Shown here: one piece after another, positions 7,150 through 38,199 of the stretch
Layout of the letters: each line of letters begins with the position of its first letter
Position numbering within the stretch: the first letter of the stretch is position 1
Source of the DNA: Chrysomallon squamiferum
Lineage: Eukaryota; Animalia; Mollusca
DNA: 64,000 nucleotides
NCBI GenBank assembly: GCA_012295275.1
Contig: CM022665.1
Coordinates: 1,550,001 to 1,614,000, forward strand
Direction: 5' to 3'
The notes under the pieces: generated by a model
Databases searched by the model: none
What the model was told of the DNA's origin: nothing
Seen by the model: only the letters and a program-made list of their open reading frames with translations
Position numbers and translations under genes: made by a program

Positions 7150-8648
7150 TTATTCTTCTGGATTTGTGGAACATAGTCGCTTGAATACTTGCTCTTTTTC
7201 TAGAATCCAGTAAGTTGATACCCATTTAGAGCCAATAAGAACGGGACAAGCTGCATGAATTGTCATTTTGTTAGGTGAACCATTTCGATATAAATTATAC
7301 CAAATATAGTTGCACCTGCTTTAGGTTGTATTCTTACACCAAGATAAGGAAACACTGTTGCACCTCCTTCTACATCACTCATATAGTTTAACCACGTGGC
7401 AATTCTGTTTTCACTGGAAGAATATGCTATGTTGAAATAGTCAGTATGAGCCGTGAACTGTCCGCCTATTCCATAGTTTGCCACCTGAAGTGGCTCTGAA
7501 GCTTTCATTGAAAGACCTTTGATTGCTTCAATTCTTCTCTGAATTCTCTTGTCTGCTTCTGTGAAAGTTCTTCCTAGAAATGTATTTTTGCTAATTCTTA
7601 TCTCAGATTTGAAAATGTTTCCATACTGATTGATTTCAGATGTTTTTAAAAGTGGCATAGAAACTTTTTTAATGTCTTCAATTTCAGCATCACTGATAAA
7701 ATCATGATAGAGAACAATTTTCGGTGAGAAATGCAGAATCTCTTCTTTAGCAGGCTTAAGAATTAGAAGCGGATTTTTGTTGTTGTAATGGTAGCGACAT
7801 TTCAGACGATGTCGCTGTCGTACTTTAATAACGTCTTCACCACGACAGAGAGCATCGAAAGTTGTTTTTTCTTTAATTCTGGCATTTTCTTTTCTCTTTT
7901 CTTTCCTACATTTTGATATACTTATATACTTTTTCCTTCTTTTCGGAGCACGTTCTAGTTCAGGAGATAACATTAACTGTTTATTTGTCAAATTTAAAAC
8001 GTGTTCTATCTGTCCCGCTAATTCTCTACCGTGTATTTCATAGCCATGAATTTTTTCTGTTCTTACTTTCTCAAGACTTGTCTCCATCCAGATATGAACA
8101 TAGTTGTATTTTTTCATTTTGTAAGCAAGGCGACCTAATTGATAACAGTCTTCTGCTGATAATATCTGTATATATCGTTCATATATAAAACCGGCTGCTA
8201 ATCTTGTCGCATTTAATTTGTATGTATCCTGAAGTCGGAACAGAGCTGCAGCGACCCCTTCTAAATCTTCGTAACTTGGAAGATGTTCACGAATTTCTTG
8301 TAGTTCAGTCAGCTCTGTCTGGGACGTAATACTTTCGTGAAGAATAGGCTGCACATCTCGTTCCCAGTCCAAAGTGAAACGTTTAATATATAAAAATGCA
8401 CCAATTGGGTTGGCTATGTAACGATTTGGGTCTTTTAGTGCTATCGAACAGTGCTGTTCCATTTGATCTGAAATTGTTTTCAACTTTTCCAATTTAGTTT
8501 CTTGTTCATGAAAGTGACTGAAATTTCTTAATGCTATTGCCAAGTCTCTTCCTGCTAGTACAGAGCTGTAGAGATGTGATACGGACGTAAACAGTTCTGA
8601 ATTCACAGCTGATAAAAGCAAAACTAAAATAATGTACTGCTGATACAT
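7150..8648 (-). CDS. P4HA: Collagen prolyl 4-hydroxylase alpha subunit-like, intronless; ~499 aa if a 1-nt frameshift at 7302-7304 is corrected (sequencing error or young pseudogene)
   Basis: Signal peptide then ELFTS; P4HA N-domain (NPIGAFLYIKRFTLDW, LFRLQDTYKL, LSAEDCYQLGRLAY); LCRGE...LKCRY; RISKNTFL; EPLQVANYGIGGQFTAHTDY (HxD); NRIATWLNYMSDVEGGATVFP. Shifted frame continues WYNLYRNG...HAACPVLIGSKWVSTYWILEKEQVFKRLCSTNPEE* with stop at 7150-7152. Confidence 0.92.
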
Positions 8649-16172: not shown

Positions 16173-17075
16173 TTACACAAATCCTAGTAAACGACCTATC
16201 AGAAGACAAAATTCAATTAGAACAAATAAGATTTTCCACAACAGAGAACTAAATATACGACTAAAATACGTAAATATACGACCGATATACGCAAATATAC
16301 GTCTGATGAATCCAGCTGCAGAATGTCGTCTGACTCTTCTGACTCTTTTGACTCTGAGAGGTGGCAATGTGTACATCTCGCAGTTTCCATCTCTTAAGTT
16401 GTACACGATGGCGGTGAATCTTGCAGAGCAAACTGGACAATTTCTTCTGCTTCTAGACCACCTCTCCAAACAGCTGAAACAAAATTCATGTAAACACGAG
16501 TCTGCATGACACTTATCTAAAAATTCTTCTGAACACAAAGAACAAGTAGGTGACTTATCTGATTCAGGCTGTTGTGTTGATTCAGCAGTGCTGGGTGATG
16601 GTGATGTTGACATCCCTGGTCTTTCTCCACATGCTGCTTTTACAGGGTCACGTTCGGAAATCTTTCGCCCTTTTGGAGGCTTCTCTGGGCACCCATCATC
16701 CTGTGCTTTCCGTTTCCTAGATGTTGATGTCCCTGGTCCTCTACGTGATGTTTCTCCAGGGTCACGTTCGGAAATCTTTCGCCCTTTTGGAGGCTTCTTC
16801 GGGCACCCATCATCCTGTGCTTTCCGTTTCCTAGATGTTGATGTCCCTGGTCCTCTACGTGATGTTTCTCCAGGGTCACGTTCGGAAATCTTTCGCCCTT
16901 TTGGAGGCTTCTTCGGGCACCCATCATCCTGTGCTTTCCGTTTCCTAGATGTTGTTGTCCCTGGTCCTCTACGTGATGTTTCTCCAGGTTCGGAAATCTT
17001 TCGCCCTTTTGGAGGCTTTTCAGGGCACTCATCATCCTGTGCTTTCCTTTTCTTGGACGCTCTTACTTTTCCCAT
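16173..17075 (-). CDS. Single-exon C3HC4 RING finger protein, TOPORS-like putative E3 ligase, 300 aa
   Basis: CSLC-x12-CLHEFCFSCLERWSRSRRNCPVC followed by SARFTAIVYNLRDGNCEMYTLPP, resembling the TOPORS RING and its post-RING segment; four ~40-aa K/R-rich repeats at the N-terminus; hydrophobic C-terminus; GC-richer than flanks. Confidence 0.8.
   Translation of the reverse strand: MGKVRASKKRKAQDDECPEKPPKGRKISEPGETSRRGPGTTTSRKRKAQDDGCPKKPPKGRKISERDPGETSRRGPGTSTSRKRKAQDDGCPKKPPKGRKISERDPGETSRRGPGTSTSRKRKAQDDGCPEKPPKGRKISERDPVKAACGERPGMSTSPSPSTAESTQQPESDKSPTCSLCSEEFLDKCHADSCLHEFCFSCLERWSRSRRNCPVCSARFTAIVYNLRDGNCEMYTLPPLRVKRVRRVRRHSAAGFIRRIFAYIGRIFTYFSRIFSSLLWKILFVLIEFCLLIGRLLGFV
16643..17052 (-). 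repeat. Coding 120-bp tandem repeat (about 3.5 copies) inside the RING gene
   Basis: Unit encodes RKRKAQDDGCPKKPPKGRKISERDPGETSRRGPGTSTS-like peptide; copies nearly identical, first copy 6 bp shorter. Confidence 0.95.
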
Positions 17076-17897: not shown

Positions 17898-18219
17898 TCA
17901 ACCAGATGGTCGGATGTCCCAAAAACGCGAAGAATCACCGCAGGATTACCTCCCAGCATTTGCTAGTGCTAGCTCAGTTTACACACAAGCACGTGGCGAA
18001 TACTGAGAAAAAATATGCCTGCGATTACGTTTCGAAAGATGCGCGTAGAAGAGTTGTGAAGTAAAGCTCATCCGATACTCTCCCAGCATTTGCTAGTGCT
18101 AGCAGAACGTGAAACGCCAGCACAACCAAATACAAGCAAAGTACTGATGATGTCTTTCTCTTAATGTACGTAATGCGTAACTTTTCGTCATTTCGTCGTC
18201 TACTTGCGACGGCGATGTT
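17898..18219 (-). repeat. 322-bp inverted copy of part of the array unit, containing hairpins H2 and H3 on the minus strand; pairs with 18386-18707
   Basis: Reverse complement of AACATCGCC...CCATCTGGTTGA; CTCCCAGCATTTGCTAGTGCTA at 17950-17971 and 18080-18101. Confidence 0.95.
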
Positions 18220-19427
18220 CACATTTAGTTTTCTTCAACAGAAACTGTACGAGACAATTTCCTGATATGTTATTTCACGAGCACGAAACAAATACCAGAA
18301 CGTATTTGTTTCGTGCTCGTGACGTAAAACACAACTAGCACTAGCAAATGCTGGAGGTTTATCGAATAGACAGCTGCGCTTCCGAAACATCGCCGTCGCA
18401 AGTAGACGACGAAATGACGAAAAGTTACGCATTACGTACATTAAGAGAAAGACATCATCAGTACTTTGCTTGTATTTGGTTGTGCTGGCGTTTCACGTTC
18501 TGCTAGCACTAGCAAATGCTGGGAGAGTATCGGATGAGCTTTACTTCACAACTCTTCTACGCGCATCTTTCGAAACGTAATCGCTGGCATATTTTTTCTC
18601 AGTATTCGCCACGTGCTTGTGTGTAAACTGAGCTAGCACTAGCAAATGCTGGGAGGTAATCCTGCGGTGATTCTTCGCGTTTTTGGGACATCCGACCATC
18701 TGGTTGAAAGCCTTTCCTTTTTAGCTAAATTATGCTCAAACCGCTACCAGATCACAGAAGACACCACTCAAATTTATTTACGACCATCACGTCCTTAATA
18801 CTTTGCTAGTATTTCTTGGTGCTGGCGTTTCACGTCTTGTTAGCACTAGCAAATGCTGGGAGAGTATAGTACGAAATGCACTTCAACAACGATACCTTTT
18901 GAGCGAAGTAATGCTGTTTCCGCAAACAGATCACAAAAGCAGTCAGATTTATTTAGGACGACTACATCGTTAGCACTCTGCTAGCATTTCTTTGTGCTGG
19001 TGTGTCACAAAGTACTAGCACTAGCAAATGCTGGGAGAGTATAGTACGAAATGCACTTCAACAACGATACGTAAACTGCACGGCCATCATTTCGTTCGTA
19101 ATCCGTTTTTTTTTTTTTTTTTTTCTTTAAAAGCGCTTGGTAATTTGAATTTTCGACGTCGAAATTTCTAATTAGTCCAATTAAGTAAACAATGCTTGAT
19201 GTTTCAACCAAGTGATAACTAGCGGTTGTCAATGAGTCAATTCAAAATTCATTCACTCTCACTGTCAGCTCACTGCCTCATTTACGAAGTATAAGTAATT
19301 TCAGATACTTCTAATATCGTTGCAGATGCAGGCGTCGTCTCCAGTCACATCAGCTTTCAGGTATTATTTGCTTTTCTTCACATTTAGTTTTCTTCAACAG
19401 AAACTGTACGAGACAATTTCCTGATAT

Positions 19428-19516
19428 GTTATTTCTAAACGTTCTGGTATTTGTTTCGTGCTCGTGACGTAAAACACAACTAGCACTAGCAAATGCTGGA
19501 GGTTTATCGAATAGAC
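19428..19516 (+). ncRNA. Pre-miRNA-like hairpin H1 (representative copy); mature candidate 19481-19502 UAGCACUAGCAAAUGCUGGAGG
   Basis: 5' arm TTCTGGTATTTGTTTCGTGCTCG pairs with the 3' arm; lower stem TAAAC/GTTTA; CTAC 17 nt after the arm. Confidence 0.75.
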
Positions 19517-19597
19517 AGCTACGCTTCCGAAACATCGCCGTCGCAAGTAGACGACGAAATGACGAAAACTTACGCATTACGTACATTAAGAGAAAGA

Positions 19598-19681
19598 CAT
19601 CATCAGTACTTTGTTTGTATTTGGTTGTGCTGGCGTTTCACGTTCTGCTAGCACTAGCAAATGCTGGGAGAGTATCGGATG
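19598..19681 (+). ncRNA. Pre-miRNA-like hairpin H2 (representative); mature candidate 19649-19670 UAGCACUAGCAAAUGCUGGGAG
   Basis: TACTTTGYTTGTATTTGGTTGTGCTGGCG - loop TTTCACGTTC - TGCTAGCACTAGCAAATGCTGGGAGAGTA; CTTC 19 nt after the arm. Confidence 0.78.
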
Positions 19682-19726
19682 AGCTTTACTTCACAACTCT
19701 TCTACGCGCATCTTTCGAAACGTAAT

Positions 19727-19813
19727 CGCAGGCATATTTTTTTTCTCAGTATTCGCCACGTGCTTGTGTGTAAACTGAGCTAGCACTAGCAAATGCTGGG
19801 AGGTAATCCTGCG
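19727..19813 (+). ncRNA. Pre-miRNA-like hairpin H3 (representative); mature candidate 19781-19802
   Basis: TTTCTCAGTATTCGCCACGTGCTTGT pairs with GCTAGCAC...GGGAGG; basal CGCAGG/CCTGCG; apical UGUG; CTTC 18 nt after the arm. Confidence 0.78.
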
Positions 19814-19935
19814 GTGATTCTTCGCGTTTTTGGGACATCCGACCATCTGGTTGAAAGCCTTTCCTTTTAGCTAAATTATGCTCAAACCGCTACCAGATCA
19901 CAGAAGACACCACTCAAATTTATTTACGACCATCA

Positions 19936-20019
19936 CGTCCTTAATACTTTGCTAGTATTTCTTGGTGCTGGCGTTTCACGTCTTGTTAGCACTAGCAAAT
20001 GCTGGGAGAGTATAGTACG
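19936..20019 (+). ncRNA. Pre-miRNA-like hairpin H4 (representative); mature candidate 19987-20008
   Basis: ATACTTTGCTAGTATTTCTTGGTGCTGGCG - loop TTTCACGTCT - TGTTAGCACTAGCAAATGCTGGGAGAGTAT; CTTC 19 nt after the arm. Confidence 0.78.
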
Positions 20020-20112
20020 AAATGCACTTCAACAACGATACCTTTTGAGCGAAGTAATGCTGTTTCCGCAAACAGATCACAAAAGCAGTCAGATTTATTT
20101 AGGACGACTACA

Positions 20113-20195
20113 TCGTTAGCACTCTGCTAGCATTTCTTTGTGCTGGTGTGTCACAAAGTACTAGCACTAGCAAATGCTGGGAGAGTATAGTACGA
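20113..20195 (+). ncRNA. Pre-miRNA-like hairpin H5 (representative); mature candidate 20162-20183
   Basis: ACTCTGCTAGCATTTCTTTGTGCTGGTG - loop TGTCACAAAG - TACTAGCACTAGCAAATGCTGGGAGAGT; basal TCGT/ACGA; apical UGUG; CTTC 19 nt after the arm. Confidence 0.78.
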
Positions 20196-20249
20196 AATGC
20201 ACTTCAACAACGATACGTAAACTGCACGGCCATCATTTCGTTCGTAATC

Positions 20250-20500
20250 CGTTTTTTTTTCTTTAAAAGCGCTTGGTAATTTGAATTTTCGACGTCGAAA
20301 TTTCTAATTAGTCCAATTAAGTAAACAATGCTTGATGTTTCAACCAAGTGATAACTAGCGGTTGTCAATGAGTCAATTCAAAATTCATTCACTCACTGTC
20401 AGCTCACTGCCCATTTACGAAGTATAAGTAATTTCAGATACTTCTAATATCGTTGCAGATGCAGGCGTCGTCTCCAGTCACATCAGCTTTCAGGTATTAT
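20250..20500 (+). promoter_or_regulatory. Hairpin-free spacer of each unit, candidate per-unit promoter (representative copy)
   Basis: T-tract 20252-20264, palindrome TTTCGACGTCGAAA 20287-20300, CCAAT about 20313, TGAGTCA 20369-20375, TATAAGTA 20423-20430, upstream of H1; motif-level evidence only. Confidence 0.35.
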
Positions 20501-23500
20501 TTGCTTTTCTTCACATTTAGTTTTCTTCAACAGAAACTGTACGAGACAATTTCCTGATATGTTATTTCTAAACGTTCTGGTATTTGTTTCGTGCTCGTGA
20601 CGTAAAACACAACTAGCACTAGCAAATGCTGGAGGTTTATCGAATAGACAGCTACGCTTCCGAAACATCGCCGTCGCAAGTAGACGACGAAATGACGAAA
20701 ACTTACGCATTACGTACATTAAGAGAAAGACATCATCAGTACTTTGCTTGTATTTGGTTGTGCTGGCGTTTCACGTTCTGCTAGCACTAGCAAATGCTGG
20801 GAGAGTATCGGATGAGCTTTACTTCACAACTCTTCTACGCGCATCTTTCGAAACGTAATCGCAGGCATATTTTTTCTCAGTATTCGCCACGTGCTTGTGT
20901 GTAAACTGAGCTAGCACTAGCAAATGCTGGGAGGTAATCCTGCGGTGATTCTTCGCGTTTTTGGGACATCCGACCATCTGGTTGAAAGCCTTTCCTTTTT
21001 AGCTAAATTATGCTCAAACCGCTACCAGATCACAGAAGACACCACTCAAATTTATTTACGACCATCACGTCCTTAATACTTTGCTAGTATTTCTTGGTGC
21101 TGGCGTTTCACGTCTTGTTAGCACTAGCAAATGCTGGGAGAGTATAGTACGAAATGCACTTCAACAACGATACCTTTTGAGCGAAGTAATGCTGTTTCCG
21201 CAAACAGATCACAAAAAGCAGTCAGATTTATTTAGGACGACTACATCGTTAGCACTCTGCTAGCATTTCTTTGTGCTGGTGTGTCACAAAGTACTAGCAC
21301 TAGCAAATGCTGGGAGAGTATAGTACGAAATGCACTTCAACAACGATACGTAAACTGCACGGCCATCATTTCGTTCGTAATCCGTTTTTTTTTTTTTTAA
21401 AAGCGCTTGGTAATTTGAATTTTCGACGTCGAAATTTCTAATTAGTCCAATTAAGTAAACAATGCTTGATGTTTCAACCAAGTGATAACTAGCGGTTGTC
21501 AATGAGTCAATTCAAAATTCATTCACTCACTGTCAGTCAGCTCACTGCCTCATTTACGAAGTATAAGTAATTTCAGATACTTCTAATATCGTTGCAGATG
21601 CAGGCGTCGTCTCCAGTCACATCAGCTTTCAGGTATTATTTGCTTTTCTTCACATTTAGTTTTCTTCAACAGAAACTGTACGAGACAATTTCCTGATATG
21701 TTATTTCTAAACGTTCTGGTATTTGTTTCGTGCTCGTGACGTAAAACACAACTAGCACTAGCAAATGCTGGAGGTTTATCGAATAGACAGCTACGCTTCC
21801 GAAACATCGCCGTCGCAAGTAGACGACGAAATGACGAAAACTTACGCATTACGTACATTAAGAGAAAGACATCATCAGTACTTTGTTTGTATTTGGTTGT
21901 GCTGGCGTTTCACGTTCTGCTAGCACTAGCAAATGCTGGGAGAGTATCGGATGAGCTTTACTTCACAACTCTTCTACGCGCATCTTTCGAAACGTAATCG
22001 CAGGCATATTTTTTCTCAGTATTCGCCACGTGCTTGTGTGTAAACTGAGCTAGCACTAGCAAATGCTGGGAGGTAATCCTGCGGTGATTCTTCGCGTTTT
22101 TGGGACATCCGACCATCTGGTTGAAAGCCTTTCCTTTTAGCTAAATTATGCTCAAACCGCTACCAGATCACAGAAGACACCACTCAAATTTATTTACGAC
22201 CATCACGTCCTTAATACTTTGCTAGTATTTCTTGGTGCTGGCGTTTCACGTCTTGTTAGCACTAGCAAATGCTGGGAGAGTATAGTACGAAATGCACTTC
22301 AACAACGATACCTTTTGAGCGAAGTAATGCTGTTTCCGCAAACAGATCACAAAAGCAGTCAGATTTATTTAGGACGACTACATCGTTAGCACTCTGCTAG
22401 CATTTCTTTGTGCTGGTGTGTCACAAAGTACTAGCACTAGCAAATGCTGGGAGAGTATAGTACGAAATGCACTTCAACAACGATACGTAAACTGCACGGC
22501 CATCATTTCGTTCGTAATCCGTTTTTTTTTTTTCTTTAAAAGCGCTTGGTAATTTGAATTTTCGACGTCGAAATTTCTAATTAGTCCAATTAAGTAAACA
22601 ATGCTTGATGTTTCAACCAAGTGATAACTAGCGGTTGTCAATGAGTCAATTCAAAATTCATTCACTCACTGTCAGCTCACTGCCTCATTTACGAAGTATA
22701 AGTAATTTCAGATACTTCTAATATCGTTGCAGATGCAGGCGTCGTCTCCAGTCACATCAGCTTTCAGGTATTATTTGCTTTTCTTCACATTTAGTTTTCT
22801 TCAACAGAAACTGTACGAGACAATTTCCTGATATGTTATTTCTAAACGTTCTGGTATTTGTTTCGTGCTCGTGACGTAAAACACAACTAGCACTAGCAAA
22901 TGCTGGAGGTTTATCGAATAGACAGCTACGCTTCCGAAACATCGCCGTCGCAAGTAGACGACGAAATGACGAAAACTTACGCATTACGTACATTAAGAGA
23001 AAGACATCATCAGTACTTTGTTTGTATTTATTGTTGTGCTGGCGTTTCACGTTCTGCTAGCACTAGCAAATGCTGGGAGAGTATCGGATGAGCTTTACTT
23101 CACAACTCTTCTACGCGCATCTTTCGAAACGTAATCGCAGGCATATTTTTTCTCAGTATTCGCCACGTGCTTGTGTGTAAACTGAGCTAGCACTAGCAAA
23201 TGCTGGGAGGTAATCCTGCGGTGATTCTTCGCGTTTTTGGGACATCCGACCATCTGGTTGAAAGCCTTTCCTTTTAGCTAAATTATGCTCAAACCGCTAC
23301 CAGATCACAGAAGACACCACTCAAATTTATTTACGACCATCACGTCCTTAATACTTTGCTAGTATTTCTTGGTGCTGGCGTTTCACGTCTTGTTAGCACT
23401 AGCAAATGCTGGGAGAGTATAGTACGAAATGCACTTCAACAACGATACCTTTTGAGCGAAGTAATGCTGTTTCCGCAAACAGATCACAAAAAGCAGTCAG

Positions 23501-26500
23501 ATTTATTTAGGACGACTACATCGTTAGCACTCTGCTAGCATTTCTTTGTGCTGGTGTGTCACAAAGTACTAGCACTAGCAAATGCTGGGAGAGTATAGTA
23601 CGAAATGCACTTCAACAACGATACGTAAACTGCACGGCCATCATTTCGTTCGTAATCCGTTTTTTTTCTTCTTTAAAAGCGCTTGGTAATTTGAATTTTC
23701 GACGTCGAAATTTCTAATTAGTCCAATTAAGTAAACAATGCTTGATGTTTCAACCAAGTGATAACTAGCGGTTGTCAATGAGTCAATTCAAAATTCATTC
23801 ACTCACTGTCAGCTCACTGCCCTCATTTACGAAGTATAAGTAATTTCAGATACTTCTAATATCGTTGCAGATGCAGGCGTCGTCTCCAGTCACATCAGCT
23901 TTCAGGTATTATTTGCTTTTCTTCACACATTTAGTTTTCTTCAACAGAAACTGTACGAGACAATTTCCTGATATGTTATTTCTAAACGTTCTGGTATTTG
24001 TTTCGTGCTCGTGACGTAAAACACAACTAGCACTAGCAAATGCTGGAGGTTTATCGAATAGACAGCTACGCTTCCGAAACATCGCCGTCGCAAGTAGACG
24101 ACGAAATGACGAAAACTTACGCATTACGTACATTAAGAGAAAGACATCATCAGTACTTTGTTTGTATTTGGTTGTGCTGGCGTTTCACGTTCTGCTAGCA
24201 CTAGCAAATGCTGGGAGAGTATCGGATGAGCTTTACTTCACAACTCTTCTACGCGCATCTTTCGAAACGTAATCGCAGGCATATTTTTTTCTCAGAATTC
24301 GCCACGTGCTTGTGTGTAAACTGAGCTAGCACTAGCAAATGCTGGGAGGTAATCCTGCGGTGATTCTTCGCGTTTTTGGGACATCCGACCATCTGGTTGA
24401 AAGCCTTTCCTTTTTAGCTAAATTATGCTCAAACCGCTACCAGATCACAGAAGACACCACTCAAATTTATTTACGACCATCACGTCCTTAATACTTTGCT
24501 AGTATTTCTTGGTGCTGGCGTTTCACGTCTTGTTAGCACTAGCAAATGCTGGGAGAGTATAGTACGAAATGCACTTCAACAACGATACCTTTTGAGCGAA
24601 GTAATGCTGTTTCCGCAAACAGATCACAAAAGCAGTCAGATTTATTTAGGACGACTACATCGTTAGCACTCTGCTAGCATTTCTTTGTGCTGGTGTGTCA
24701 CAAAGTACTAGCACTAGCAAATGCTGGGAGAGTATAGTACGAAATGCACTTCAACAACGATACGTAAACTGCACGGCCATCATTTCGTTCGTAATCCGTT
24801 TTTTTTTTTTTTCTTTAAAAGCGCTTGGTAATTTGAATTTTCGACGTCGAAATTTCTAATTAGTCCAATTAAGTAAACAATGCTTGATGTTTCAACCAAG
24901 TGATAACTAGCGGTTGTCAATGAGTCAATTCAAAATTCATTCACTCACTGTCAGCTCACTGCCCCATTTACGAAGTATAAGTAATTTCAGATACTTCTAA
25001 TATCGTTGCAGATGCAGGCGTCGTCTCCAGTCACATCAGCTTTCAGGTATTATTTGCTTTTCTTCACATTTAGTTTTCTTCAACAGAAACTGTACGAGAC
25101 AATTTCCTGATATGTTATTTCTAAACGTTCTGGTATTTGTTTCGTGCTCGTGACGTAAAACACAACTAGCACTAGCAAATGCTGGAGGTTTATCGAATAG
25201 ACAGCTACGCTTCCGAAACATCGCCGTCGCAAGTAGACGACGAAATGACGAAAACTTACGCATTACGTACATTAAGAGAAAGACATCATCAGTACTTTGC
25301 TTGTATTTGGTTGTGCTGGCGTTTCACGTTCTGCTAGCACTAGCAAATGCTGGGAGAGTATCGGATGAGCTTTACTTCACAACTCTTCTACGCGCATCTT
25401 TCGAAACGTAATCGCAGGCATATTTTTTCAGTATTCGCCACGTGCTTGTGTGTAAACTGAGCTAGCACTAGCAAATGCTGGGAGGTAATCCTGCGGTGAT
25501 TCTTCGCGTTTTTGGGACATCCGACCATCTGGTTGAAAGCCTTTCCTTTTTAGCTAAATTATGCTCAAACCGCTACCAGATCACAGAAGACACCACTCAA
25601 ATTTATTTACGACCATCACGTCCTTAATACTTTGCTAGTATTTCTTGGTGCTGGCGTTTCACGTCTTGTTAGCACTAGCAAATGCTGGGAGAGTATAGTA
25701 CGAAATGCACTTCAACAACGATACCTTTTGAGCGAAGTAATGCTGTTTCCGCAAACAGATCACAAAAAGCAGTCAGATTTATTTAGGACGACTACATCGT
25801 TAGCACTCTGCTAGCATTTCTTTGTGCTGGTGTGTCACAAAGTACTAGCACTAGCAAATGCTGGGAGAGTATAGTACGAAATGCACTTCAACAACGATAC
25901 GTAAACTGCACGGCCATCATTTCGTTCGTAATCCGTTTTTTTTTCTTTAAAAGCGCTTGGTAATTTGAATTTTCGACGTCGAAATTTCTAATTAGTCCAA
26001 TTAAGTAAACAATGCTTGATGTTTCAACCAAGTGATAACTAGCGGTTGTCAATGAGTCAATTCAAAATTCATTCACTCACTGTCAGCTCACTGCCCCATT
26101 TACGAAGTATAAGTAATTTCAGATACTTCTAATATCGTTGCAGATGCAGGCGTCGTCTCCAGTCACATCAGCTTTCAGGTATTATTTGCTTTTCTTCACA
26201 TTTAGTTTTCTTCAACAGAAACTGTACGAGACAATTTCCTGATATGTTATTTCTAAACGTTCTGGTATTTGTTTCGTGCTCGTGACGTAAAACACAACTA
26301 GCACTAGCAAATGCTGGAGGTTTATCGAATAGACAGCTACGCTTCCGAAACATCGCCGTCGCAAGTAGACGACGAAATGACGAAAACTTACGCATTACGT
26401 ACATTAAGAGAAAGACATCATCAGTACTTTGTTTGTATTTGGTTGTGCTGGCGTTTCACGTTCTGCTAGCACTAGCAAATGCTGGGAGAGTATCGGATGA

Positions 26501-29500
26501 GCTTTACTTCACAACTCTTCTACGCGCATCTTTCGGAAACGTAATCGCAGGCATATTTTTCTCAGTATTCGCCACGTGCTTGTGTGTAAACTGAGCTAGC
26601 ACTAGCAAATGCTGGGAGGTAATCCTGCGGTGATTCTTCGCGTTTTGGGACATCCGACCATCTGGTTGAAAGCCTTTCCTTTTAGCTAAATTATGCTCAA
26701 ACCGCTACCAGATCACAGAAGACACCACTCAAATTTATTTACGACCATCACGTCCTTAATACTTTGCTAGTATTTCTTGGTGCTGGCGTTTCACGTCTTG
26801 TTAGCACTAGCAAATGCTGGGAGAGTATAGTACGAAATGCACTTCAACAACGATACCTTTTGAGCGAAGTAATGCTGTTTCCGCAAACAGATCACAAAAG
26901 CAGTCAGATTTATTTAGGACGACTACATCGTTAGCACTCTGCTAGCATTTCTTTGTGCTGGTGTGTCACAAAGTACTAGCACTAGCAAATGCTGGGAGAG
27001 TATAGTACGAAATGCACTTCAACAACGATACGTAAACTGCACGGCCATCATTTCGTTCGTAATCCGTTTTTTTTTTTTTTTTAAAAGCGCTTGGTAATTT
27101 GAATTTTCGACGTCGAAATTTCTAATTAGTCCAATTAAGTAAACAATGCTTGATGTTTCAACCAAGTGATAACTAGCGGTTGTCAATGAGTCAATTCAAA
27201 ATTCATTCACTCACTGTCAGCTCACTGCCTCATTTACGAAGTATAAGTAATTTCAGATACTTCTAATATCGTTGCAGATGCAGGCGTCGTCTCCAGTCAC
27301 ATCAGCTTTCAGGTATTATTTGCTTTTCTTCACATTTAGTTTTCTTCAACAGAAACTGTACGAGACAATTTCCTGATATGTTATTTCTAAACGTTCTGGT
27401 ATTTGTTTCGTGCTCGTGACGTAAAACACAACTAGCACTAGCAAATGCTGGAGGTTTATCGAATAGACAGCTACGCTTCCGAAACATCGCCGTCGCAAGT
27501 AGACGACGAAATGACGAAAACTTACGCATTACGTACATTAAGAGAAAGACATCATCAGTACTTTGTTTGTATTTGGTTGTGCTGGCGTTTCACGTTCTGC
27601 TAGCACTAGCAAATGCTGGGAGAGTATCGGATGAGCTTTACTTCACAACTCTTCTACGCGCATCTTTCGAAACGTAATCGCAGGCATATTTTTTCAGTAT
27701 TCGCCACGTGCTTGTGTGTAAACTGAGCTAGCACTAGCAAATGCTGGGAGGTAATCCTGCGGTGATTCTTCGCGTTTTTGGGACATCCGACCATCTGGTT
27801 GAAAGCCTTTCCTTTTAGCTAAATTATGCTCAAACCGCTACCAGATCACAGAAGACACCACTCAAATTTATTTACGACCATCACGTCCTTAATACTTTGC
27901 TAGTATTTCTTGGTGCTGGCGTTTCACGTCTTGTTAGCACTAGCAAATGCTGGGAGAGTATAGTACGAAATGCACTTCAACAACGATACCTTTTGAGCGA
28001 AGTAATGCTGTTTCCGCAAACAGATCACAAAAAAGCAGTCAGATTTATTTAGGACGACTACATCGTTAGCACTCTGCTAGCATTTCTTTGTGCTGGTGTG
28101 TCACAAAGTACTAGCACTAGCAAATGCTGGGAGAGTATAGTACGAAATGCACTTCAACAACGATACGTAAACTGCACGGCCATCATTTCGTTCGTAATCC
28201 GTTTTTTTTTTTTTTTTAAAAGCGCTTGGTAATTTGAATTTTCGACGTCGAAATTTCTAATTAGTCCAATTAAGTAAACAATGCTTGATGTTTCAACCAA
28301 GTGATAACTAGCGGTTGTCAATGAGTCAATTCAAAATTCATTCACTCACTGTCAGCTCACTGCCTCATTTACGAAGTATAAGTAATTTCAGATACTTCTA
28401 ATATCGTTGCAGATGCAGGCGTCGTCTCCAGTCACATCAGCTTTCAGGTATTATTTGCTTTTCTTCACATTTAGTTTTCTTCAACAGAAACTGTACGAGA
28501 CAATTTCCTGATATGTTATTTCTAAACGTTCTGGTATTTGTTTCGTGCTCGTGACGTAAAACACAACTAGCACTAGCAAATGCTGGAGGTTTATCGAATA
28601 GACAGCTACGCTTCCGAAACATCGCCGTCGCAAGTAGACGACGAAATGACGAAAACTTACGCATTACGTACATTAAGAGAAAGACATCATCAGTACTTTG
28701 CTTGTATTTGGTTGTGCTGGCGTTTCACGTTCTGCTAGCACTAGCAAATGCTGGGAGAGTATCGGATGAGCTTTACTTCACAACTCTTCTACGCGCATCT
28801 TTCGAAACGTAATCGCAGGCATATTTTTTTTTTTCAGTATTCGCCACGTGCTTGTGTGTAAACTGAGCTAGCACTAGCAAATGCTGGGAGGTAATCCTGC
28901 GGTGATTCTTCGCGTTTTTTGGGACATCCGACCATCTGGTTGAAAGCCTTTCCTTTTTAGCTAAATTATGCTCAAACCGCTACCAGATCACAGAAGACAC
29001 CACTCAAATTTATTTACGACCATCACGTCCTTAATACTTTGCTAGTATTTCTTGGTGCTGGCGTTTCACGTCTTGTTAGCACTAGCAAATGCTGGGAGAG
29101 TATAGTACGAAATGCACTTCAACAACGATACCTTTTGAGCGAAGTAATGCTGTTTCCGCAAACAGATCACAAAAAGCAGTCAGATTTATTTAGGACGACT
29201 ACATCGTTAGCACTCTGCTAGCATTTCTTTGTGCTGGTGTGTCACAAAGTACTAGCACTAGCAAATGCTGGGAGAGTATAGTACGAAATGCACTTCAACA
29301 ACGATACGTAAACTGCACGGCCATCATTTCGTTCGTAATCCGTTTTTTTTCTTTTTTAAAAGCGCTTGGTAATTTGAATTTTCGACGTCGAAATTTCTAA
29401 TTAGTCCAATTAAGTAAACAATGCTTGATGTTTCAACCAAGTGATAACTAGCGGTTGTCAATGAGTCAATTCAAAATTCATTCACTCACTGTCAGCTCAC

Positions 29501-32500
29501 TGCCTCATTTACGAAGTATAAGTAATTTCAGATACTTCTAATATCGTTGCAGATGCAGGCGTCGTCTCCAGTCACATCAGCTTTCAGGTATTATTTGCTT
29601 TTCTTCACATTTAGTTTTCTTCAACAGAAACTGTACGAGACAATTTCCTGATATGTTATTTCTAAACGTTCTGGTATTTGTTTCGTGCTCGTGACGTAAA
29701 ACACAACTAGCACTAGCAAATGCTGGAGGTTTATCGAATAGACAGCTACGCTTCCGAAACATCGCCGTCGCAAGTAGACGACGAAATGACGAAAACTTAC
29801 GCATTACGTACATTAAGAGAAAGACATCATCAGTACTTTGCTTGTATTTGGTTGTGCTGGCGTTTCACGTTCTGCTAGCACTAGCAAATGCTGGGAGAGT
29901 ATCGGATGAGCTTTACTTCACAACTCTTCTACGCGCATCTTTCGAAACGTAATCGCAGGCATATTTTTCTCAGTATTCGCCACGTGCTTGTGTGTAAACT
30001 GAGCTAGCACTAGCAAATGCTGGGAGGTAATCCTGCGGTGATTCTTCGCGTTTTTGGGACATCCGACCATCTGGTTGAAAGCCTTTCCTTTTAGCTAAAT
30101 TATGCTCAAACCGCTACCAGATCACAGAAGACACCACTCAAATTTATTTACGACCATCACGTCCTTAATACTTTGCTAGTATTTCTTGGTGCTGGCGTTT
30201 CACGTCTTGTTAGCACTAGCAAATGCTGGGAGAGTATAGTACGAAATGCACTTCAACAACGATACCTTTTGAGCGAAGTAATGCTGTTTCCGCAAACAGA
30301 TCACAAAAGCAGTCAGATTTATTTAGGACGACTACATCGTTAGCACTCTGCTAGCATTTCTTTGTGCTGGTGTGTCACAAAGTACTAGCACTAGCAAATG
30401 CTGGGAGAGTATAGTACGAAATGCACTTCAACAACGATACGTAAACTGCACGGCCATCATTTCGTTCGTAATCCGTTTTTTTTTCTTTAAAAGCGCTTGG
30501 TAATTTGAATTTTCGACGTCGAAATTTCTAATTAGTCCAATTAAGTAAACAATGCTTGATGTTTCAACCAAGTGATAACTAGCGGTTGTCAATGAGTCAA
30601 TTCAAAATTCATTCACTCTCACTGTCAGCTCACTGCCTCATTTACGAAGTATAAGTAATTTCAGATACTTCTAATATCGTTGCAGATGCAGGCGTCGTCT
30701 CCAGTCACATCAGCTTTCAGGTATTATTTGCTTTTCTTCACATTTAGTTTTCTTCAACAGAAACTGTACGAGACAATTTCCTGATATGTTATTTCTAAAC
30801 GTTCTGGTATTTGTTTCGTGCTCGTGACGTAAAACACAACTAGCACTAGCAAATGCTGGAGGTTTATCGAATAGACAGCTACGCTTCCGAAAACATCGCC
30901 GTCGCAAGTAGACGACGAAATGACGAAAACTTACGCATTACGTACATTAAGAGAAAGACATCATCAGTACTTTGTTTGTATTTGGTTGTGCTGGCGTTTC
31001 ACGTTCTGCTAGCACTAGCAAATGCTGGGAGAGTATCGGATGAGCTTTACTTCACAACTCTTCTACGCGCATCTTTCGAAACGTAATCGCAGGCATATTT
31101 TTTTCTCAGTATTCGCCACGTGCTTGTGTGTAAACTGAGCTAGCACTAGCAAATGCTGGGAGGTAATCCTGCGGTGATTCTTCGCGTTTTGGGACATCCG
31201 ACCATCTGGTTGAAAGCCTTTCCTTTTAGCTAAATTATGCTCAAACCGCTACCAGATCACAGAAGACACCACTCAAATTTATTTACGACCATCACGTCCT
31301 TAATACTTTGCTAGTATTTCTTGGTGCTGGCGTTTCACGTCTTGTTAGCACTAGCAAATGCTGGGAGAGTATAGTACGAAATGCACTTCAACAACGATAC
31401 CTTTTGAGCGAAGTAATGCTGTTTCCGCAAACAGATCACAAAAGCAGTCAGATTTATTTAGGACGACTACATCGTTAGCACTCTGCTAGCATTTCTTTGT
31501 GCTGGTGTGTCACAAAGTACTAGCACTAGCAAATGCTGGGAGAGTATAGTACGAAATGCACTTCAACAACGATACGTAAACTGCACGGCCATCATTTCGT
31601 TCGTAATCCGTTTTTTTTTTTTTTTTTAAAAGCGCTTGGTAATTTGAATTTTCGACGTCGAAATTTCTAATTAGTCCAATTAAGTAAACAATGCTTGATG
31701 TTTCAACCAAGTGATAACTAGCGGTTGTCAATGAGTCAATTCAAAATTCATTCACTCTCACTGTCAGCTCACTGCCTCATTTACGAAGTATAAGTAATTT
31801 CAGATACTTCTAATATCGTTGCAGATGCAGGCGTCGTCTCCAGTCACATCAGCTTTCAGGTATTATTTGCTTTTCTTCACATTTAGTTTTCTTCAACAGA
31901 AACTGTACGAGACAATTTCCTGATATGTTATTTCTAAACGTTCTGGTATTTGTTTCGTGCTCGTGACGTAAAACACAACTAGCACTAGCAAATGCTGGAG
32001 GTTTATCGAATAGACAGCTACGCTTCCGAAACATCGCCGTCGCAAGTAGACGACGAAATGACGAAAACTTACGCATTACGTACATTAAGAGAAAGACATC
32101 ATCAGTACTTTGCTTGTATTTGGTTGTGCTGGCGTTTCACGTTCTGCTAGCACTAGCAAATGCTGGGAGAGTATCGGATGAGCTTTACTTCACAACTCTT
32201 CTACGCGCATCTTTCGAAACGTAATCGCAGGCATATTTTTTTTCTCAGTATTCGCCACGTGCTTGTGTGTAAACTGAGCTAGCACTAGCAAATGCTGGGA
32301 GGTAATCCTGCGGTGATTCTTCGCGTTTTTGGGACATCCGACCATCTGGTTGAAAGCCTTTCCTTTTTAGCTAAATTATGCTCAAACCGCTACCAGATCA
32401 CAGAAGACACCACTCAAATTTATTTACGACCATCACGTCCTTAATACTTTGCTAGTATTTCTTGGTGCTGGCGTTTCACGTCTTGTTAGCACTAGCAAAT

Positions 32501-35500
32501 GCTGGGAGAGTATAGTACGAAATGCACTTCAACAACGATACCTTTTGAGCGAAGTAATGCTGTTTCCGCAAACAGATCACAAAAGCAGTCAGATTTATTT
32601 AGGACGACTACATCGTTAGCACTCTGCTAGCATTTCTTTGTGCTGGTGTGTCACAAAGTACTAGCACTAGCAAATGCTGGGAGAGTATAGTACGAAATGC
32701 ACTTCAACAACGATACGTAAACTGCACGGCCATCATTTCGTTCGTAATCCGTTTTTTTTTTTTTTTTTAAAAGCTTGGTAATTTGAATTTTCGACGTCGA
32801 AATTTCTAATTAGTCCAATTAAGTAAACAATGCTTGATGTTTCAACCAAGTGATAACTAGCGGTTGTCAATGAGTCAATTCAAAATTCATTCACTCTCAC
32901 TGTCAGCTCACTGCCTCATTTACGAAGTATAAGTAATTTCAGATACTTCTAATATCGTTGCAGATGCAGGCGTCGTCTCCAGTCACATCAGCTTTCAGGT
33001 ATTATTTGCTTTTCTTCACATTTAGTTTTCTTCAACAGAAACTGTACGAGACAATTTCCTGATATGTTATTTCTAAACGTTCTGGTATTTGTTTCGTGCT
33101 CGTGACGTAAAACACAACTAGCACTAGCAAATGCTGGAGGTTTATCGAATAGACAGCTACGCTTCCGAAACATCGCCGTCGCAAGTAGACGACGAAATGA
33201 CGAAAACTTACGCATTACGTACATTAAGAGAAAGACATCATCAGTACTTTGCTTGTATTTGGTTGTGCTGGCGTTTCACGTTCTGCTAGCACTAGCAAAT
33301 GCTGGGAGAGTATCGGATGAGCTTTACTTCACAACTCTTCTACGCGCATCTTTCGAAACGTAATCGCAGGCATATTTTTTCTCAGTATTCGCCACGTGCT
33401 TGTGTGTAAACTGAGCTAGCACTAGCAAATGCTGGGAGGTAATCCTGCGGTGATTCTTCGCGTTTTTGGGACATCCGACCATCTGGTTGAAAGCCTTTCC
33501 TTTTAGCTAAATTATGCTCAAACCGCTACCAGATCACAGAAGACACCACTCAAATTTATTTACGACCATCACGTCCTTAATACTTTGCTAGTATTTCTTG
33601 GTGCTGGCGTTTCACGTCTTGTTAGCACTAGCAAATGCTGGGAGAGTATAGTACGAAATGCACTTCAACAACGATACCTTTTGAGCGAAGTAATGCTGTT
33701 TCCGCAAACAGATCACAAAAAGCAGTCAGATTTATTTAGGACGACTACATCGTTAGCACTCTGCTAGCATTTCTTTGTGCTGGTGTGTCACAAAGTACTA
33801 GCACTAGCAAATGCTGGGAGAGTATAGTACGAAATGCACTTCAACAACGATACGTAAACTGCACGGCCATCATTTCGTTCGTAATCCGTTTTTTTTCTTC
33901 TTTAAAAGCGCTTGGTAATTTGAATTTTCGACGTCGAAATTTCTAATTAGTCCAATTAAGTAAACAATGCTTGATGTTTCAACCAAGTGATAACTAGCGG
34001 TTGTCAATGAGTCAATTCAAAATTCATTCACTCTCACTGTCAGCTCACTGCCTCATTTACGAAGTATAAGTAATTTCAGATACTTCTAATATCGTTGCAG
34101 ATGCAGGCGTCGTCTCCAGTCACATCAGCTTTCAGGTATTATTTGCTTTTCTTCACATTTAGTTTTCTTCAACAGAAACTGTACGAGACAATTTCCTGAT
34201 ATGTTATTTCTAAACGTTCTGGTATTTGTTTCGTGCTCGTGACGTAAAACACAACTAGCACTAGCAAATGCTGGAGGTTTATCGAATAGACAGCTACGCT
34301 TCCGAAACATCGCCGTCGCAAGTAGACGACGAAATGACGAAAACTTACGCATTACGTACATTAAGAGAAAGACATCATCAGTACTTTGCTTGTATTTGGT
34401 TGTGCTGGCGTTTCACGTTCTGCTAGCACTAGCAAATGCTGGGAGAGTATCGGATGAGCTTTACTTCACAACTCTTCTACGCGCATCTTTCGAAACGTAA
34501 TCGCAGGCATATTTTTTTCAGTATTCGCCACGTGCTTGTGTGTAAACTGAGCTAGCACTAGCAAATGCTGGGAGGTAATCCTGCGGTGATTCTTCGCGTT
34601 TTTGGGACATCCGACCATCTGGTTGAAAGCCTTTCCTTTTTAGCTAAATTATGCTCAAACCGCTACCAGATCACAGAAGACACCACTCAAATTTATTTAC
34701 GACCATCACGTCCTTAATACTTTGCTAGTATTTCTTGGTGCTGGCGTTTCACGTCTTGTTAGCACTAGCAAATGCTGGGAGAGTATAGTACGAAATGCAC
34801 TTCAACAACGATACCTTTTGAGCGAAGTAATGCTGTTTCCGCAAACAGATCACAAAAGCAGTCAGATTTATTTAGGACGACTACATCGTTAGCACTCTGC
34901 TAGCATTTCTTTGTGCTGGTGTGTCACAAAGTACTAGCACTAGCAAATGCTGGGAGAGTATAGTACGAAATGCACTTCAACAACGATACGTAAACTGCAC
35001 GGCCATCATTTCGTTCGTAATCCGTTTTTTTTTTTTTTTTTCTTTAAAAGCGCTTGGTAATTTGAATTTTCGACGTCGAAATTTCTAATTAGTCCAATTA
35101 AGTAAACAATGCTTGATGTTTCAACCAAGTGATAACTAGCGGTTGTCAATGAGTCAATTCAAAATTCATTCACTCTCACTGTCAGCTCACTGCCTCATTT
35201 ACGAAGTATAAGTAATTTCAGATACTTCTAATATCGTTGCAGATGCAGGCGTCGTCTCCAGTCACATCAGCTTTCAGGTATTATTTGCTTTTCTTCACAT
35301 TTAGTTTTCTTCAACAGAAACTGTACGAGACAATTTCCTGATATGTTATTTCTAAACGTTCTGGTATTTGTTTCGTGCTCGTGACGTAAAACACAACTAG
35401 CACTAGCAAATGCTGGAGGTTTATCGAATAGACAGCTACGCTTCCGAAACATCGCCGTCGCAAGTAGACGACGAAATGACGAAAACTTACGCATTACGTA

Positions 35501-38199
35501 CATTAAGAGAAAGACATCATCAGTACTTTGCTTGTATTTGGTTGTGCTGGCGTTTCACGTTCTGCTAGCACTAGCAAATGCTGGGAGAGTATCGGATGAG
35601 CTTTACTTCACAACTCTTCTACGCGCATCTTTCGAAACGTAATCGCAGGCATATTTTTTCAGTATTCGCCACGTGCTTGTGTGTAAACTGAGCTAGCACT
35701 AGCAAATGCTGGGAGGTAATCCTGCGGTGATTCTTCGCGTTTTTGGGACATCCGACCATCTGGTTGAAAGCCTTTCCTTTTAGCTAAATTATGCTCAAAC
35801 CGCTACCAGATCACAGAAGACACCACTCAAATTTATTTACGACCATCACGTCCTTAATACTTTGCTAGTATTTCTTGGTGCTGGCGTTTCACGTCTTGTT
35901 AGCACTAGCAAATGCTGGGAGAGTATAGTACGAAATGCACTTCAACAACGATACCTTTTGAGCGAAGTAATGCTGTTTCCGCAAACAGATCACAAAAAGC
36001 AGTCAGATTTATTTAGGACGACTACATCGTTAGCACTCTGCTAGCATTTCTTTGTGCTGGTGTGTCACAAAGTACTAGCACTAGCAAATGCTGGGAGAGT
36101 ATAGTACGAAATGCACTTCAACAACGATACGTAAACTGCACGGCCATCATTTCGTTCGTAATCCGTTTTTTTTTTTTTTAAAAGCGCTTGGTAATTTGAA
36201 TTTTCGACGTCGAAATTTCTAATTAGTCCAATTAAGTAAACAATGCTTGATGTTTCAACCAAGTGATAACTAGCGGTTGTCAATGAGTCAATTCAAAATT
36301 CATTCACTCTCACTGTCAGCTCACTGCCTCATTTACGAAGTATAAGTAATTTCAGATACTTCTAATATCGTTGCAGATGCAGGCGTCGTCTCCAGTCACA
36401 TCAGCTTTCAGGTATTATTTGCTTTTCTTCACATTTAGTTTTCTTCAACAGAAACTGTACGAGACAATTTCCTGATATGTTATTTCTAAACGTTCTGGTA
36501 TTTGTTTCGTGCTCGTGACGTAAAACACAACTAGCACTAGCAAATGCTGGAGGTTTATCGAATAGACAGCTACGCTTCCGAAACATCGCCGTCGCAAGTA
36601 GACGACGAAATGACGAAAACTTACGCATTACGTACATTAAGAGAAAGACATCATCAGTACTTTGCTTGTATTTGGTTGTGCTGGCGTTTCACGTTCTGCT
36701 AGCACTAGCAAATGCTGGGAGAGTATCGGATGAGCTTTACTTCACAACTCTTCTACGCGCATCTTTCGAAACGTAATCGCAGGCATATTTTTTCTCAGTA
36801 TTCGCCACGTGCTTGTGTGTAAACTGAGCTAGCACTAGCAAATGCTGGGAGGTAATCCTGCGGTGATTCTTCGCGTTTTTGGGACATCCGACCATCTGGT
36901 TGAAAGCCTTTCCTTTTTAGCTAAATTATGCTCAAACCGCTACCAGATCACAGAAGACACCACTCAAATTTATTTACGACCATCACGTCCTTAATACTTT
37001 GCTAGTATTTCTTGGTGCTGGCGTTTCACGTCTTGTTAGCACTAGCAAATGCTGGGAGAGTATAGTACGAAATGCACTTCAACAACGATACCTTTTGAGC
37101 GAAGTAATGCTGTTTCCGCAAACAGATCACAAAAGCAGTCAGATTTATTTAGGACGACTACATCGTTAGCACTCTGCTAGCATTTCTTTGTGCTGGTGTG
37201 TCACAAAGTACTAGCACTAGCAAATGCTGGGAGAGTATAGTACGAAATGCACTTCAACAACGATACGTAAACTGCACGGCCATCATTTCGTTCGTAATCC
37301 GTTTTTTTTTTTTTTTCTTTAAAAGCGCTTGGTAATTTGAATTTTCGACGTCGAAATTTCTAATTAGTCCAATTAAGTAAACAATGCTTGATGTTTCAAC
37401 CAAGTGATAACTAGCGGTTGTCAATGAGTCAATTCAAAATTCATTCACTCTCACTGTCAGCTCACTGCCTCATTTACGAAGTATAAGTAATTTCAGATAC
37501 TTCTAATATCGTTGCAGATGCAGGCGTCGTCTCCAGTCACATCAGCTTTCAGGTATTATTTGCTTTTCTTCACATTTAGTTTTCTTCAACAGAAACTGTA
37601 CGAGACAATTTCCTGATATGTTATTTCTAAACGTTCTGGTATTTGTTTCGTGCTCGTGACGTAAAACACAACTAGCACTAGCAAATGCTGGAGGTTTATC
37701 GAATAGACAGCTACGCTTCCGAAACATCGCCGTCGCAAGTAGACGACGAAATGACGAAAACTTACGCATTACGTACATTAAGAGAAAGACATCATCAGTA
37801 CTTTGCTTGTATTTGGTTGTGCTGGCGTTTCACGTTCTGCTAGCACTAGCAAATGCTGGGAGAGTATCGGATGAGCTTTACTTCACAACTCTTCTACGCG
37901 CATCTTTCGAAACGTAATCGCAGGCATATTTTTTCTCAGTATTCGCCACGTGCTTGTGTGTAAACTGAGCTAGCACTAGCAAATGCTGGGAGGTAATCCT
38001 GCGGTGATTCTTCGCGTTTTTGGGACATCCGACCATCTGGTTGAAAGCCTTTCCTTTTTAGCTAAATTATGCTCAAACCGCTACCAGATCACAGAAGACA
38101 CCACTCAAATTTATTTACGACCATCACGTCCTTAATACTTTGCTAGTATTTCTTGGTGCTGGCGTTTCACGTCTTTTTAGCACTAGCAACTGCAATGTA

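Follow-up and report, generated by a model that had tools for sequence, protein, structure and literature searches.

A tandem array of short hairpins in the mollusc Chrysomallon squamiferum raises three questions: whether it encodes a microRNA, to which family such a miRNA would belong, and what so many copies of it would do. The array lies in a stretch of 64,000 nucleotides (GCA_012295275.1, contig CM022665.1, positions 1,550,001 to 1,614,000, forward strand), which was analysed as a whole and is called the window here; positions are counted from its first letter. An earlier note on this DNA had read a 22-mer as a 3p miRNA starting at U with the seed AGCACUA, one base from that of miR-29 and with a body resembling miR-96, and had proposed either a miR-29-like derivative or a new family. 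The 22-mer was confirmed at its position (Table 1).

A 10-base core of the motif, with at most one mismatch allowed, matches the window 94 times, compared with 3.1 matches expected. The full 19-base core occurs in 88 plus-strand copies distributed over five paralogous hairpins (H1/H2/H3/H4/H5 = 18/18/18/17/17), besides which there are two minus-strand copies and one truncated copy. H1 anchors are spaced 1132-1145 bp apart (n=18), which gives a unit of about 1,135 bp holding the five paralogues. The units are near-identical, with a mean of 1.9 and a maximum of 5 substitutions over 15 aligned segments (one of them two units long, an anchor having gone undetected), and shared variants define subsets of them. 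The first unit is without the upstream spacer block, and the last one is cut off within the mature arm of H4. The open reading frames inside the array recur unit by unit and carry no coding signal, and within the 64-kb window no family members were found outside the array. At its left edge, region 17898-18330 combines an inverted copy with a 25-bp fold-back that pairs with the star of the first H1; a transcript crossing this region would make long double-stranded RNA. We ascribe the inversion and fold-back to template switching or to an assembly artefact.

Table 1. Positions of the hairpin array and its parts within the window.
Feature	Position	Strand	Remarks
Inverted 322-bp copy with H2 and H3	17898..18219	-	321/322 bases identical to 18385-18706
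Tandem array of hairpin units	18220..38189	+	18 H1 anchors, 88 complete hairpin arms
Promoter-like spacer, one per unit (17 copies)	19169..19363	+	conserved with DNA upstream of L046 hairpins
H1 mature arm, 3' variant ending GGAGG	19481..19502	+	
Predicted 58-nt pre-miRNA H2	19613..19670	+	star 19613-19634, loop 19635-19648; from the fold
Predicted mature miRNA, 3p arm of H2, seed AGCACUA at 19650-19656	19649..19670	+	sequence, fold, homology to oyster reads
H3 mature arm	19781..19802	+	
H4 mature arm	19987..20008	+	
H5 mature arm	20162..20183	+	similar to oyster m0317

Some 0.8 kb downstream of the inverted hairpins, and on their strand, is an intronless ORF (16173-17075, minus strand) that encodes a RING finger and contains tandem repeats of 114 bp. 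Another intronless ORF (7263-8648, minus strand) encodes a fast-evolving prolyl 4-hydroxylase alpha that ends early relative to its 530-aa relatives. Among named proteins it is most similar to those of molluscs, with the gastropod Gigantopelta first at 45%; in a tree it groups with that gastropod on a long branch (support 99/95), which makes a gastropod host likely. The ORF is likely a retrocopy. On the other side, 40781-64000 (minus strand) holds numerous exons for an axonemal dynein heavy chain, the 3' end lying 2.6 kb from the array; the best named match to the exon queries was a bivalve.

Canonical animal miRNA hairpins are imperfect, the arms forming at least 16 pairs and the loop spanning 8-40 nt. 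All five classes fit this description: 16-22 of the 22 arm bases are paired, and the loops measure 13-15 nt by the inferred cuts, the ends of the H2 precursor having been placed from 2-nt overhangs and the register of oyster star reads. The H2 fold has a z score of -4.35, with none of 200 shuffles equally stable, and plus-strand folds of H1-H5 range from -2.7 to -4.6, each with 4-8 G-U pairs. Minus-strand folding energy is weaker in all five classes; the exception in z is H3, which scores lower on the minus strand (-3.5) than on the plus strand (-2.7). The mature arm is half-palindromic (AGCA ... UGCU at the two ends of 19649-19670), so the opposite strand also gives a weak match. Conservation follows the same outline: the 3' arm is constant across classes, the 5' arms vary yet still pair with it, and loop and flanks diverge. 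A CNNC motif lies 17-19 nt past the 3' end in all five classes (chance 0.16 each; H4 and H5 share a flank). Apical UGU/GUG was seen by eye in H1, H3 and H5, and in H4, the one class checked by eye for it, basal UG is absent at -14.

The seed AGCACUA is present in all 88 copies. The base before the motif does vary in the way first described, being C in 71 copies and T in the 17 copies of H4, and the H1 variant ending in GGAGG recurs in 18 copies. Since C also precedes the motif in 123 of 140 related hairpins from other loci, this variation is a weak argument for the position of the 5' end. That end, and with it the seed, is supported by homology, since the reads of related oyster hairpins put AGCACU at nt 2-7. 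The 22-mer is thus very probably a miRNA with seed AGCACUA, whose predicted target sites would be UAGUGCU(A), as the seed implies and as the note had anticipated.

The oyster relatives come from the supplement of PMC4138081, in the part available, which holds 11 of them: four of the 19 accepted novel precursors (m0214, m0314, m0317, m0347) and seven rejected ones (m0215, m0316, m0338, m0341, m0342, m0345, m0348). There, 3p reads are given for 10 of the 11, and all 10 carry AGCACU at nt 2-7, continued to AGCACUA in seven and AGCACUU in three, with U, A or G at nt 1. In a by-eye comparison, the window 22-mer shares 18 of 22 positions with m0342_3p and with m0316_3p on the same arm, and m0317 matches H5 at 26 of 29 bases over star end, loop and arm start. 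As in the window, C stands before the U in m0316, m0317 and m0345, and their reads begin at U. The likeness extends to the 3p arm, the UGCU(G/U)GG tail, a star with GUAY and GUGCU, and clustering, whereas the middle bases 9-13 differ and the oyster hairpins form dispersed clusters of few members in that assembly. A further candidate, m0324, had the search word on its 5p arm and was dropped.

Expression of these hairpins is confined to early development in the same available tables (PMC4138081). Their 3p reads number 0-3 in the egg, peak from blastula to D larva, and are 0 from the umbo larva on and in eight of eight adult organs. For m0314_3p the values are 14 RPM in the egg, 741 at blastula, then 297, 226, 81 and 0, one read equalling 14 RPM in the small egg library. 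In several AGCACUA paralogues 5p reads equal or exceed 3p reads (322 versus 38 for m0214 at blastula). According to the authors, four of the homologues have reads from both arms, a homogeneous 5' end and 2-nt overhangs; they regarded the novel miRNAs as oyster-specific and the clustered ones among them as of different origin. By eye and by alignment, the window hairpins fall into the unnamed m0214/m0317 group and, as judged from these comparisons, are the same family as the unnamed oyster embryo miRNAs.

Metagenomes were scanned with a pattern built from the window and the oyster hairpins (AGCACU required, nt 1 and 10-12 free), so part of the identity of seed and tail among the matches is there by construction. 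The scan returned at least 121 loci; among the matches listed, 14 had several matches, compared with none of 45 viral loci. A model, R1, run on 100 of the 107 single-match loci, identified four members (50-75 bits), the others scoring 25.4 bits or less. Among the matches listed, members form seven sequence groups by BLAST with 140 hairpins, a count that omits the near-duplicates L019, L082 and L089; their seeds are AGCACUA in 116 and AGCACUU in 24. In all 50 pairings of locus L046 with the window, nt 1-17 are identical; agreement falls to 68% at the base preceding the motif and mostly to 15-60% in loop and flanks. In 25 chosen hairpins, 86.5% of stem cells are paired versus 75.6% after shuffling and 29-49% in slid controls, and 15 of 26 pairs have changed on both sides, a covariation score reached by none of 500 shuffles; since we set the structure ourselves and related sequences inflate such counts, these figures are support rather than a probability. 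The flanks of L021, L048 and L069 contain animal-type exons by eye. In these three, the neighbours of the arrays, which have 113-bp hairpin units, are helicase-like exons and BEACH-like exons at separate loci (by eye); such a difference suggests that within one type of genome the array changes place or multiplies. Judging from the hairpins recovered, arrays are present in several other animals, and the family is not private to this genome, its oyster homologues having been published unnamed in 2014.

The unit itself occurs in six listed sequencing runs, four of them RNA from one study and none of them small-RNA. Contigs X1-X3 of that study cover 24-30 of 30 unit bins evenly, spacer included, with no splice joint; DNA carry-over would give equal coverage, and we did not count them as evidence of expression.

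More distant candidates are found in annelids. In the available part of PMC8915122, scaffold_488 of Capitella carries an embryonic tandem cluster of 3p hairpins that its authors likened to miR-430, with prolonged expression and a suggested role in metamorphosis. Among the matches listed, nine of 15 hairpins have the seed AAGCACC or AAGCACU, and the best match to the window 22-mer is 15/22 with one gap (by eye). For the Capitella members, the annelid and mollusc entries of MirGeneDB gave no match with the same seed, according to the same part of that paper. From Platynereis, the available part of PMC12257675 holds 10 such miRDeep2 rows, which are not in its curated table; two of 12 rows considered were unrelated and were dropped. 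Both annelid sets are expressed from embryo to larva; they share with the window tandem 3p hairpins, an AGCAC(C/U) core and a similar star start and 3' tail, and differ from it in a seed shifted by one base. From this by-eye comparison, homology of the annelid clusters to the window family is probable.

We then compared the family with the named ones. miR-96, in its vertebrate form, is a 5p product with another seed; it has in common with the window the word GCACUAGCA. The conserved arm here is 3p, the seed is not that of miR-96 and Rfam gave no mir-96 hit, so a link to miR-96 is not supported. The MIR-29 family comprises miR-29, 285, 83, 995 and 998. Its 3p product starts UAGCAC as here, with the seed AGCACCA differing from that of the window at nt 7 only; the 22-mer lacks that seed, and the hairpin matches neither the family model nor the mature body. 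In the available tables of PMC4138081, oyster miR-29 is moreover expressed in all stages and organs (8-411 RPM) from separate loci. A search of the 64 kb with Rfam gave 0 hits at gathering score and, at E up to 10, neither mir-29 nor mir-96; an exact match to an annotated family, which would have removed the novelty, was thus not found there. Weak Rfam matches to mir-653 and mir-2566 (on the fold-back), mir-2766, mir-155 and HOTAIR_3 were rejected as chance, as was mir-2012 (18.7 bits versus 90).

Members of miR-430/427/302 have a seed complementary to AGCACUU sites, and the window seed nearly copies that site word. The paralogue seed AGCACUU (L011, L018 and oyster m0314/m0316/m0317) is identical to the zebrafish miR-430 7mer-m8 target-site word, as given in the available part of PMC10949700; the relation between the two seeds is thus one of complementarity, not of similarity. 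By the tests run, the window family is not a member of MIR-29, MIR-96 or miR-430. The word AGCACUA does not occur in the oyster table of conserved miRNAs, as available (PMC4138081), and no matches were found in the accessible text and four supplement files of an octopus study (PMC9699675) or in the accessible part of PMC12261956. The lead MIR-12096/12097 was set aside: mir-12096 was not found in the literature searched and the sequence of miR-12097 differs. Nor is 12096 in the available MirGeneDB 3.0 table (PMC11701709). The literature searched contained nothing joining the window, oyster and annelid sets.

That the family branched from MIR-29 with a changed seed, or is another one already named in MirGeneDB 3.0, seems to us unlikely. 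The seed is one base from miR-29 on the same arm, the star arms of both begin CUGGU, MirGeneDB includes oyster, limpet, abalone and clam, and annelid relatives have AGCACC(A), a core that makes a miR-29 origin of the family possible. The 22-mer is, however, identical to cgi-miR-29-1-3p at 9 of 20 positions (by eye) and to the unnamed oyster set at 18 of 22, and the Rfam search with E up to 10 gave no mir-29 hit. The MirGeneDB 3.0 node table, in the part available (PMC11701709), assigns a single row each to Mollusca (MIR-2722) and Conchifera (MIR-1984), three to Lophotrochozoa and none to Bivalvia. The absence of the Platynereis members from the curated set of PMC12257675 and of same-seed MirGeneDB annelid or mollusc matches to those of Capitella, each in the parts of these sources available, points the same way. 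Of what the earlier note proposed, a family for which the searches gave no name is supported, descent from miR-29 is a possibility and a link to miR-96 is not supported.

The unit has a further conserved part, an AT-rich spacer. Aligned with DNA upstream of the L046 hairpins it scores 100 (1000 shuffles: mean 29, maximum 57), whereas for the shorter stretches that separate the hairpins the scores are 16-20. The window contains 17 copies of the block and L046 two, one on either side of its ten hairpins; in 16 other loci no match was found (score at most 35). It contains CCAAT, Fox/Sox-like and AP-1-like words, a TATA-like word at 19289-19296 and a donor-like CAGGTA at 19358-19363, names that follow consensus sequences. 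CAGGTA is also kept in L046, and a long T run follows H5 (19106-19133). The hairpins may sit in an intron of a non-coding host, yet the contigs show no splice joint. Run X1 contains a second spacer variant at 19193-19316, which differs at 7 of 124 bases and may come from a diverged copy at another place in the genome. Since L046 keeps both nt 1-17 and the spacer, each unit looks like a promoter plus hairpins, as at zebrafish miR-430.

At the zebrafish locus, according to the available part of bioRxiv 2021.08.09.455629, a TATA promoter is followed by two or three hairpin triplets, with 313 promoters, one per 1.8 kb. The likeness lies in repeated units of a TATA promoter (here a predicted one) and a run of same-seed hairpins, and in the early zygotic timing seen in the oyster homologues; the differences lie in seed, targets and the lack of an Rfam hit in the window. 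We propose that each 1,135-bp unit would be a TATA-type promoter driving five hairpins, from which Drosha and Dicer would release a 22-nt 3p guide starting at U. Seventeen promoters and 88 hairpins could then supply a short, high dose at genome activation, and maternal and early zygotic 3' UTRs with UAGUGCU(A) sites would be the targets, their mRNA being destabilised. Overall, the array is probably an embryonic zygotic miRNA family that would destabilise early-embryo mRNAs, miR-430-like without being miR-430, and the family is likely an old molluscan, perhaps spiralian, one.

Clearance of early mRNAs, proposed by analogy, is the role towards which we lean slightly; what counts against it is that expression in the available oyster tables continues up to the D larva, beyond the period that pure maternal clearance would require. 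The same family and seed might instead shape zygotic, larva-specific expression (trochophore and veliger programmes). The oyster reads span blastula to D larva with a peak placed at trochophore, the Capitella authors noted prolonged expression and suggested a role in metamorphosis (PMC8915122, in the part available), and miR-430 also regulates zygotic mRNA in the sources available. Against such a larval role, which we rate as rather improbable, stand the near-absence from the oyster egg and the strong expression by blastula (m0314_3p, 14 to 741 RPM), and a many-promoter build typical, in the sources available, of genes fired at genome activation. It is very unlikely that the array in this species is a satellite-like expansion of once-functional hairpins, mostly silent or making other small RNAs, or that its copy number was inflated in assembly. 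The small divergence of the units (1.9 substitutions on average) and the almost perfect inversion and fold-back at the left edge would suit such an origin. However, arm nt 1-17 and the spacer are constant against L046 where the linkers are not, the promoter-plus-hairpins build recurs in L046, some units can be grouped by variants that they share, and the unit is present in independent runs.

The preferred reading, an embryonic miRNA family that destabilises early mRNAs, can be set beside other systems. miR-427 and miR-309, like miR-430, are miRNA clusters of genome activation. To our knowledge, such clusters are usually regarded as separate inventions, and our literature search found none proposed for molluscs. 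A bolder view, which we hold tentatively and at less than even chances, is that the mollusc and annelid sets are one ancient family of multi-promoter arrays fired at zygotic genome activation and clearing maternal mRNA, a spiralian counterpart of miR-430 since the Cambrian, with its seed shifted by one base between phyla. Sparse sampling of embryos would explain why the family was overlooked. Orphan miRNAs, the "oyster-specific" ones and those of annelid embryos, are now tied to arrays of gastropod type and of other kinds; the seed (AGCACU[A/U]) and the site (AGUGCU) are concrete enough to be used on existing oyster time courses. The array may also represent a miR-430-like many-promoter build outside vertebrates. 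If the family spans bivalves and gastropods, it would correct the molluscan miRNA inventory used in phylogenetics.
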